NCBI GenBank assembly: GCA_964430065.1
Contig: CAYSEP010000001.1
Coordinates: 6,394 to 50,089 of the forward strand
Direction: 5' to 3'
DNA length: 43,696 bases
Source: an uncultured Candidatus Peribacteria bacterium
GTDB lineage: Bacteria > Patescibacteriota > Gracilibacteria > BD1-5 > UBA2023
The translations under genes were made by a program, and so were the position numbers. This document shows, piece by piece, positions 29,619 through 30,917 of the stretch. The notes beneath the pieces were generated by a model. That model worked only from the letters and a program-made list of their open reading frames with translations. It was not told where the DNA came from and searched no databases. Positions within the stretch are counted from its first letter, which is position 1; every line of letters begins with the position of its first letter.

Positions 29619-30917
29619 CTACTCTCCTCGTACTTTCATGGCCTCGAGTATGCGCTCCAGAGCGACGACATAGGCACCAGTTCGGAGCATCACCTTATGG
29701 TCTTCCGCTGATCGTAGTACCCCAGCCAGCGCTGTTTCCATCTTGAGCTTGAGCTTTTCTTGGACTTCAGCACGTGACCAGAAGTAGTTTGCATTGTTCT
29801 GGACTTGCTCGAAGTAGGAGACAGTCACTCCTCCTGCATTCGCGAGGATATCTGGAATGACAGGAATGCCAGCAGTAAATAAAACTGTATCGGCATTTGG
29901 TGTAATCGGTCCATTCGCAAGTTCCATGATGAGTTTTGCTTTCACATTTTTTGCATTATCTGAGGTGATCTGATTCTCCAGAGCTGCAGGGATGAGGATA
30001 TCACAAGGGAGTTCGAGAAGCTCAGCATTGGTTATTTGAGCAAAATCCCCCCGCCCCCCTTTATCAAGGGGGAGATATTCTGTGAGTGCTTTCTTCTCTG
30101 ACTTGAGTTTCACGATTTGCGCTATATCGAGACCACTATCATCGTAGATCGCTCCATGAGAGTCAGAAGTACCGATAAGGACAGCTCCCGTCTTTGCGAT
30201 GAGTTCGATCATATTGAGTCCTGCATTTCCCGCTCACTGGATGACGATTTTTTTTCATTTGAGAAGATTATCAGAAGCCTGGATTCCTGCCTTCGCAGGA
30301 ATGACGGAACGGAGGTATGCTTCGAGGACATAGAGTCCTCCCTGAGCTGTCGCGGTATCACGCCCGAGAGATCCACCGATAGAGAGTGGCTTTCCTGTGA
30401 AAGTCCCTGGAGTCCAGTGACCGACAAGTTTCGAGTATTCATCGACCATCCATGCCATGATCTGACCATTGGTATTCACATCTGGTGCGGGTACATCATC
30501 GAGAGGTCCGAGGTACTTATAGAGACTCTTCACCCAGGCGCGTGAGAGTTGCTCGAGCTCACCCTGCGAGAGTGTCTTCGGGTCGACGATGATACCTCAC
30601 TTTCCTCCACCAAGTGGGAGATCGAGGGTTGCCGTCTTGATACTCATCCATGCAGAGAGTGCCATGACCTCGTCTTTGTTCACTCACTGGTGATAGCGGA
30701 TACCACCTTTATAGGGTCCACGAGCATTATTGTGCTGACTCCGATAGCCTACGAACGTGCGCATCGAGCCATCATCCATCTCGATCGTGAGAGAAACTTC
30801 GATGATACGCTCAGGAAAGAGGACTTTCTCGAACTGCCTATCATATCTTCCTTTGAGGAATTCGTACGCAGCGCGCATCTGAGTCTGAGCAGAGAGGAAG
30901 GGGTTATTGGTGGACAT
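29619..30917 (-). CDS. gdh: Glu/Leu/Phe/Val-family (glutamate) dehydrogenase carrying two in-frame repeat insertions
   Basis: The sequence [16 protein letters not shown][TGA]G, IQ[TGA]AGNAG (family consensus QGxGNxG), and the sequences [12 protein letters not shown] and [12 protein letters not shown]. Track pieces 30684..30917, 30255..30533 and 29619..30212 are in frame. 4 TGA. Confidence 0.9.
30046..30075. repeat. family-B half-repeat (copy B3) inside gdh
   Basis: tccccccgcccccctttatcaagggggaga. Translated as PLDKGGRGD, just before the conserved ITNxELLEL segment. Confidence 0.6.
30281..30305. repeat. family-A short hairpin (copy A7) inside gdh
   Basis: ggattcctgc cttc gcaggaatgac is the reverse complement of the intergenic copy at 41710-41734. 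Translated as VIPAKAGI in the interdomain linker. Confidence 0.75.

Follow-up and report, generated by a model that had tools for sequence, protein, structure and literature searches.

How a gene for a central metabolic enzyme comes to carry, within its reading frame, two pieces of DNA that recur elsewhere as palindromic repeats is the question raised by the glutamate dehydrogenase (GDH) gene of a 43.7-kb stretch of contig CAYSEP010000001.1, the whole of which is referred to here as the window. The answer favored, with a probability of roughly 80%, is that two short non-autonomous palindromic elements, selfish passengers of the repetitive extragenic palindrome (REP) type, lie in frame inside a functional GDH gene and are tolerated there in permissive loops of the protein. 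This reading is carried by the identity of the inserted DNA to dispersed repeats, by empty sites in close relatives, by the location of the inserts in loops, and by the intact and constrained state of the gene. Such elements would spread within and between genomes as selfish passengers, and their copies would persist only where the frame is kept, no stop codon is added and an indel-tolerant loop is hit, a filter that would explain why, in many GDH alleles of the clade, the two loops are filled with differing repeats.

The glutamate dehydrogenase gene and its code

Read with translation table 11, the open reading frame (ORF) 29619-30917 is fragmented by four TGA codons, and with table 25 it is a single frame of 432 amino acids. 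Three of the four codons (amino acids 107, 221 and 228) stand at glycines conserved in homologues, in the motifs GGGK-G-G, LK-G-KK and Q-G-AGNAG, which is the pattern by which code 25 is recognized, and the fourth (amino acid 78) occupies a non-conserved position with D as the alignment consensus. Because these codons fall on conserved glycines and the nearest relatives are Gracilibacteria, the window is attributed to a Gracilibacterium that reads UGA as glycine. Code 25 holds across the window, and ORF lists made with table 11 split many of its genes. In the database entries of relatives, UGA is rendered variously as tryptophan or glycine, or the proteins are split, and as a result several insert-bearing GDH alleles were missed in the full-length homologue search.

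The closest homologues are labelled Candidatus Gracilibacteria GDHs and contain PF02812 and PF00208, and solved hexameric GDHs are matched by the window protein with E ~1e-117. Membership of the hexameric Glu/Leu/Phe/Val dehydrogenases is borne out by the ELFV_dehydrog_N and ELFV_dehydrog domains, the GGGKGG motif with the catalytic lysine, and the GxGNxG fold. The dN/dS ratio is 0.085 against the syntenic relative L006 and 0.085-0.09 against the closest relatives, and the gene is therefore constrained rather than decaying: it is intact and under purifying selection. With this ratio, conserved catalytic and cofactor motifs, and inserts confined to loops, the insert-bearing enzyme is predicted to be functional.

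Two palindromic inserts and their families

The first insert (insert A) had been noticed in the initial annotation, made from the letters alone, as a 25-bp hairpin exactly complementary to an intergenic copy. The match turns out to be longer, with 28 of 28 nucleotides (nt) of 30279-30306 identical in inverted orientation to 41709-41736 (100% complementary). The translation given at the time, VIPAKAGI, stands and extends to VIPAKAGIQ, and the linker preceding the GxGNAG fold, judged there to be about 10 residues longer than usual, is longer by exactly 10 residues than in ~100 of 120 close homologues and in the GDHs of the PDB. The insertion follows the long helix and precedes Rossmann strand beta-1, a secondary structure taken from models of the related alleles P0002 and P0006, and its RNA is predicted to fold at -14.2 kcal/mol (z = -3.0).

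A class of REPs named CGTC-1 has been defined by a CGTC or TGTC tag, an 8-bp stem starting with AT, a 4-nt loop and a CCA tail, and has been equated with dRS3 of Neisseria and RPE-6, a Rickettsia palindromic element (RPE) of R. conorii (PMC3733652). The window holds four clean and two looser copies of the repeat family to which insert A belongs (family A) in its 43.7 kb, and more occur on the related contigs L213 and L215. In the clean copies, the tag is CGTC at 30279-30306(-) and 41709-41736(+), and TGTC at 29519(+) and 29557(-); the stem has 8 bp with A-T at its first and second positions and encloses a 4-nt loop; and an unpaired CCAG, which fits the CCA tail, ends each of them. Three different stems are present among the four, all perfectly paired, in the stem/loop combinations ATTCCTGC/GAAG, ATCCCGGT/GAAT and ATTCTGGC/GTAT, and the ends (C/T)GTC and CCAG are conserved throughout. 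To judge by tag, stem, loop and tail, insert A belongs, as a REP of 28 nt, to the CGTC-1 class, together with dRS3/NTS of Neisseria and RPE-6 of Rickettsia, a point that goes beyond the initial annotation. Compared with CGTCATTCCCGCGMAVGCGGGAATCYRG, the consensus of the Neisseria NTS, 26 of its 28 positions are identical, and the remaining two form a single compensatory change from a C:G to a T:A pair. Insert A does not fit the strict pattern of Ssn-related motifs (SRM), and the published pattern is fitted by the elements at 24965, 29519 and 29557.

More than 120 metagenome contigs, ranging in GC content from 0.30 to 0.68, contain the exact 27-mer of family A; most of the copies look intergenic and a few lie in long ORFs. 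A mobile unit longer than 28 nt was considered and rejected, as the flanks of 129 aligned metagenome copies conserve nothing outside the hairpin; flanks shared between the GDH cassettes of the window and of P0006 therefore lie outside the generic element. No Rfam family matches the repeats, and the sole Rfam match in the window is one tRNA. In addition, the family-A element is free of stop codons in all six frames under code 25, compared with five of six under code 11.

The second insert (insert B) had been described as a half-repeat of a second palindromic family, simply inserted. That it is repeat DNA in frame holds: 28 of 32 nt match the end of a ~85-nt palindromic element, which is intergenic in the related genome L016 and lies in opposite orientation at GDH site 1, the position of insert A, in allele P0075. 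A simple insertion it is not, since 36 nt replace 12 and displace a native four-residue KGGK/SGAK, with a net gain of 8 amino acids, and its likeness to the family-B copies within the window (25698-25769 and 5355-5441) is only moderate. Family-B elements are longer compound palindromes made of C5-6T...AG5-6 hairpins. From these matches, insert B is best described as one terminal module, a hairpin with a G-rich tail, of a longer palindromic element.

Could both resemblances be accidental, with the inserts representing ordinary variation of loops within the lineage, or a chimera made in assembly? The idea is hardly credible. Its only footing is insert B, which is of low complexity (runs of C and G) and resembles the family-B copies of the window moderately. 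For insert A it is refuted by the exact 28-nt match, such pairs being expected ~3e-8 times in the window by chance, and by the two matches to the NTS consensus where none is expected. For insert B, the hairpin-plus-GGGGGGATTTT motif, with its non-palindromic tail, recurs just 11 times across the 2.08 Mb of DNA that was fetched, an intergenic copy among them. Moreover, the same alleles recur in independent assemblies: the exact protein is encoded on an NCBI contig, an independent Logan contig carries insert B as well, and the assemblies L213 and L214 likewise contain insert A.

Filled and empty sites and possible routes into them

The possibility raised at the outset, that the extra residues are ancestral and widespread in GDHs, is contradicted by alignment. 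About 100 of 120 GDH homologues are 413-414 amino acids long and contain neither insert, and sister alleles at 92-98% amino acid identity have empty sites. Because such close sisters are empty, the inserts are derived rather than ancestral, and they are polymorphic. Among the relatives, L006 and P0001 contain neither insert, L213 contains only A, and the P0002 clade contains only B. Locus L006 (89-91% nucleotide identity, syntenic) is empty at both GDH sites, at a 106-nt REP dimer block behind the GDH stop codon, and at three repeat blocks in a neighboring flavoprotein gene. In L213 (93-94% over 7.8 kb), an identical REP fills site 1, the native AGTGGAGCAAAA stands at site 2, the position of insert B, with identical flanks, and the dimer block, absent also from L001, is missing. 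Further empty sites are provided by P0032 against the filled P0006 and by P0005 against the filled P0002. In the lineage of the window, A was the first to arrive and B and the REP dimer followed, because A is common to the window and L213, and B and the dimer are absent from L213. No REPs were found within 10 kb of GDH in the close relatives L006-L022, and the expansion is therefore specific to the sub-lineage of the window.

Internal insertions of at least 3 amino acids are present in 20 of 121 Gracilibacteria GDHs, 14 at site 1 and 11 at site 2, with 5 alleles filled at both; elsewhere in the protein none occurs among the 121 sequences. The inserts at both loops are palindromic repeat DNA of several families (Table 1), and in a neighbor-joining tree they sit at tips beside insert-free sisters. 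The criteria by which in-frame intragenic REPs and RPEs are recognized describe the GDH inserts as well: each repeat lies wholly within the ORF, the frame is kept, no stop is added, and insert-free orthologues exist. Of the two explanations offered by the initial annotation, frequent insertion filtered for frame and stop codons thus gains support, from this distribution as well as from three in-frame blocks in the flavoprotein gene and the stop-free reading of family A in six frames.

The structural placement comes from models of P0002, which has insert B, and P0006, which has an A-type insert of the same length (pTM 0.84-0.85), both superimposing with TM scores of ~0.9 on the GDHs of T. profundus and P. 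furiosus (1EUZ, 1GTM). Site 1 is the loop leading from the long helix to Rossmann strand beta-1, just before GxGNAG. Site 2 is the loop after the helix that follows beta-2, before the short strand that precedes the ITNxELLEL segment, with pLDDT <50 in the P0002 model. Both sites are thus modeled as surface loops of the NAD-binding domain. It is the core domain that assembles the GDH hexamer (PMC11096400), and the fold, the catalytic residues and this hexamer-forming domain would be left untouched by the inserts.

The other explanation offered by the initial annotation, exaptation, in which the peptides or the mRNA or DNA hairpins serve GDH through regulation, partner binding, mRNA stability or recombination control, is very unlikely. 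The REP is perfectly intact in the window, L213 and L214 despite 8.5% divergence of the gene, the conservation of insert B exceeds that of the gene around it, and the insert-bearing gene is under purifying selection. However, zero differences in 28 nt at this divergence is not significant (0.915^28 ~0.08), most orthologues, including some 90-98% identical, have no inserts, many unrelated repeats fill the same loops, P0006 has lost the hairpin and kept the gene, and the loops are of reduced or low model confidence.

Several points weigh against the view of the inserts as tolerated selfish passengers. The near-neutrality that it assigns to them is presumed, and their placement in loops comes from two proxy alleles rather than from the window protein. 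No mobilizing enzyme was found in the 43.7-kb window, which contains neither an ssn (cd10448) gene nor a GIY-YIG-like ORF. In at least three clades (window/L213/L214; P0006/P0122; L215), site 1 is occupied by a CGTC-1 REP whose orientation and frame do not vary, which may be more than a filter by selection gives. Insert B is identical at 34 of 36 nt between the window and the P0002 clade, whose genes are 77% identical (P ~0.005), a likeness not expected of plain old neutral DNA; it is absent from L213. Together, this cassette, the non-REP ends shared by the site-1 cassettes of the window and P0006, and the broken-hairpin cassette in P0006 go beyond a simple filter, and point to targeting, perhaps by microhomology of GAAT-like ends, or to short-patch recombination between alleles.

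Targeted insertion, in which the repeats favor the two GDH sites by sequence or structure, through cleavage by a single-strand nuclease of the Ssn type or through microhomology-templated copying from an ectopic repeat, is rather doubtful. It would account for the REP at site 1 in three clades with insert-free relatives, namely the window and L213 against L006, P0006 against P0032 (98% amino acid identity), and L215 against its closest full-length relative P0064 (92%). Likewise, the junctions of insert B are identical in the window and the P0002 clade, and L213 (92% nucleotide identity to the window) is native at that site with identical flanks. Read by eye, GAATAT and CA(A/G)ATA in the native flanks are similar to the ends of the elements, GAAT(T)C... 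and ...AATCAAATCC, and hairpins of the NTS type are cleaved by SsnA (PMC11893778). Yet these putative microhomologies are short, no target-site duplication is evident, and no ssn-like gene was recovered from the window or by a motif scan of the fetched Gracilibacteria loci, the sole candidate of the scan being in L046, a GDH-relative locus with the label Pseudomonadales. The same loops hold different repeat families and exact junctions (L215 compared with the window; P0042, P0075, P0078), for which loop tolerance is a better fit than a single target.

A side observation touches on this nuclease. On the related Gracilibacteria contig L090, positions 2076-2337 encode an 82-aa GIY-YIG protein (PDB 1zg2, E = 1e-21) that ends at a dRS3-like ATTCCC...GGGAAT hairpin, ATTCCCTCAATTATGAGGGAAT; it is of the UPF0213 type rather than an established Ssn and, with its hairpin, may point to a nuclease-repeat pair in the phylum.

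The other route, cassette exchange, is possible though not probable: each loop cassette would have arisen once and, following DNA uptake, been spread or erased among GDH alleles of different Gracilibacteria through short-patch homologous recombination, and the scatter would reflect mosaicism of alleles and not repeated insertion. The 48-nt site-1 cassettes of the window and P0006 share the non-REP ends CGTTCC and G(C/T)TTCTGA(T/G)AAT, and REPs elsewhere share only the 28-mer. The cassette gained by P0006 had a hairpin already decayed, and the insert-free P0032 is 98% identical to P0006 and has the same flanks; the simple interpretation of P0006 as an old decayed copy was rejected for this reason. 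The B cassettes have the non-element bases GCT in common and resemble one another more closely than do the genes that carry them, and the local nucleotide identity of the window gene shifts toward P0006 around site 1. On the other hand, the exchanged tract must be very short, as the flanks of insert B in the window already resemble P0001/L213 at a distance of 2-7 nt; the junction and loop sequence of L215 differ from those of the window, suggesting at least one independent event; and the first arrival of a repeat in GDH is left unexplained. A single ancient gain of B followed by losses was rejected too, because a loss must recreate the native 12 nt.

A broader claim, to be regarded as unlikely, is that the CGTC/NTS hairpin and a B-type element do not land at random and, across Gracilibacteria lineages, arrive again and again at identical codon-level sites in conserved genes, A always in one orientation and frame, through target-specific insertion or through short-patch cassette exchange in natural transformation. 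Were it true, the filled and empty pairs at 92-98% identity (window/L213, P0006/P0032, L215/P0064, P0002/P0005) would form the first natural data set on the movement of transposase-less CGTC REPs, and the reading of UGA as glycine, with the element stop-free in six frames, would help to explain why coding insertions are common in the lineage.

The site-1 linker shows a further regularity. In the insert-bearing alleles P0006, P0042, P0075, P0078 and L213 (loci L005, L086, L090, L087 and L213), it nearly always ends with GA(G/A)AATCC(A/T), read as ENP, before LKGKK, and in insert-free alleles it ends with KDN, NES or KDT. This ENP may have been left as a footprint by the end of the element, or the junction may be a preferred one.

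Known repeat systems and other elements of the window

In-frame REPs and RPEs have been described in many genes, and REPs lying wholly inside ORFs and coding for extra residues are known from R. conorii, O. terrae, Xanthomonas and others, with REPs at about the same site of recB in two Xanthomonas species (PMC3733652). The elements of the window agree with the CGTC-1 REPs of that study in tag, stem, loop and tail of four copies, in the inverted dimers, and in the intragenic copies. They differ in the host, a Gracilibacterium of the candidate phyla radiation (CPR) with code 25, from a phylum not listed there; in the target, an enzyme of central metabolism here, with the emphasis there on DNA-repair genes; and in the recurrence of two loops in many lineages with more than one repeat family. 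SsnA is a GIY-YIG single-strand nuclease that targets NTS, and its cognate small cd10448 ssn gene is typically flanked by the repeats (PMC11893778). Insert A shares 26 of 28 positions with NTS, and three other window elements fit SRM; the differences are the lack of ssn in the 43.7-kb window, the position of insert A outside the strict SRM pattern, and the coding nature of the inserts, whereas the repeats are treated in that study as flanking genes and modulating transformation. Thus, in-frame REP/RPE insertion is already known, and what is new is the CPR host with code 25 and the recurrent hot spots.

RPE-1 is much longer than these elements, at ~100-150 bp; the units described here have 28-36 nt, and up to ~85-140 nt in other alleles. 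The likeness to RPE-1 and its relatives (PMC3733652) lies in palindromes in frame within still-functional ORFs, the classic case of selfish DNA in protein-coding genes, and the hosts differ, a free-living or episymbiotic CPR bacterium here and an obligate intracellular alphaproteobacterium there. By the descriptions given of them, PARCELs, or palindromic amphipathic repeat coding elements (PMC2996958), and miniature inverted-repeat transposable elements affecting proteins in Coxiella (PMC5896051) are likewise palindromic repeat DNA turned coding in diverse microbes, and PARCELs are described as longer amphipathic-repeat coding units mainly of surface proteins, in contrast to short hairpins in enzyme loops.

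In the literature searched, no REPs were reported from Gracilibacteria/Patescibacteria or other CPR bacteria, nor anything relevant on the peptide VIPAKAGIQ. Selfish palindromes inside genes, known before from Rickettsia RPEs and from proteobacterial and verrucomicrobial REPs, now extend to the CPR, whose genomes are tiny and gene-dense and therefore leave little non-coding space for repeats. For annotation, odd loop insertions in CPR proteins, such as VIPAKAGIQ and PLxKGG..., are to be read as repeat DNA and not as lineage-specific functional motifs. Closely related filled and empty sites, together with two recurrent loops, offer material on the movement of NTS/CGTC hairpins and on the tolerance of protein loops; the biochemistry of GDH as such is unchanged by the finding.

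Table 1. Features of the window and of related GDH alleles (positions are those of the window)
Feature	Position	Strand	Details
GDH coding sequence	29619-30917	minus	432 aa, code 25 (UGA = Gly)
In-frame TGA (Gly) codons of GDH	30684-30686, 30597-30599, 30255-30257, 30234-30236	minus	
Insert A core, CGTC-1 / NTS-like REP hairpin	30279-30306	minus	CGTC, ATTCCTGC, GAAG, GCAGGAAT, CCAG; translated (S)VIPAKAGIQ
Site-1 linker cassette	30264-30311	minus	codons 203-218 (16 residues) for native 6-codon linker; net +30 nt
Insert B cassette	30039-30074	minus	CTCCCCCTTGATAAAGGGGGGCGGGGGGATTTTGCT; 36 nt, 12 residues; hairpin and G-rich tail; replaces 12 native nt (AGTGGAGCAAAA in L213)
Intergenic family-A REP	41709-41736	plus	identical to GDH copy; 8 nt past stop codon of ORF 40904-41701
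Intergenic family-B copy	5355-5441	plus	
Full family-B element in flavoprotein ORF	25698-25769	minus	in frame; directly after GAGAAG motif; encodes NSPPFRGSERGYPTQPPLQGEEYH
Flavoprotein repeat block	~25263-25366		in frame
Flavoprotein repeat block	24956-25050	minus	in frame; contains SRM-type REP 24965-24994
Block between GDH stop codon and terminator	29512-29617		106 nt; inverted CGTC-1 REP dimer 29519-29546 (+), 29557-29584 (-)
Terminator-like hairpin downstream of GDH	29460-29488		AAAAACCTCACC...GGTGAGGTTTTT; conserved in L006, L213
tRNA gene	32609-32680	minus	single; only Rfam match in window
P0042 GDH, site 1			nearly same full family-B element as window 25698-25769
P0075 GDH insert			~85-nt element
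P0078 GDH insert			~95-nt element, CCCCCCTGTCAAGGGGGG ends
P0021 GDH insert			138-nt compound element
Further GDH alleles			CGTC-type hairpins

GDH is not the only gene of the window with such blocks. The HI0933-like flavoprotein ORF (24369-25835, minus) encodes 488 amino acids, compared with 422 in L006 and L001, and contains three in-frame repeat blocks; one of them is the family-B copy at 25698-25769, whose position within a gene had escaped the initial annotation. In the orthologue of L088, VIPAKAGIQ stands at the second site, which is filled by another repeat block in the window.

In the REP dimer behind the GDH stop codon, both REPs fit the SRM pattern, and the predicted fold has -37.4 kcal/mol (z = -6.4). 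GTTCGC flanks the dimer on both sides and could be a duplication or a part of the element. Hairpins with an A-tract, a GC stem and a T-tract lie at gene ends at 5295-5321, 23854-23880, 29460-29488 and 40381-40407; they resemble bidirectional intrinsic terminators and are distinct from both repeat families.

The B-half motif CCCCCCTTTCGTAAAGGGGGGCTGGGGGGATTTT is also present at 3898-3926 of L108, a metagenome contig of very different base composition (GC 0.57), and the B-type module may thus be cross-phylum like family A. Finally, the ORF at 28539-29444 (+) encodes an N/Y/Q-rich protein of 301 amino acids with an N-terminal signal-like segment and contains an internal duplication of ~300 nt (28937-28978 compared with 29237-29278).

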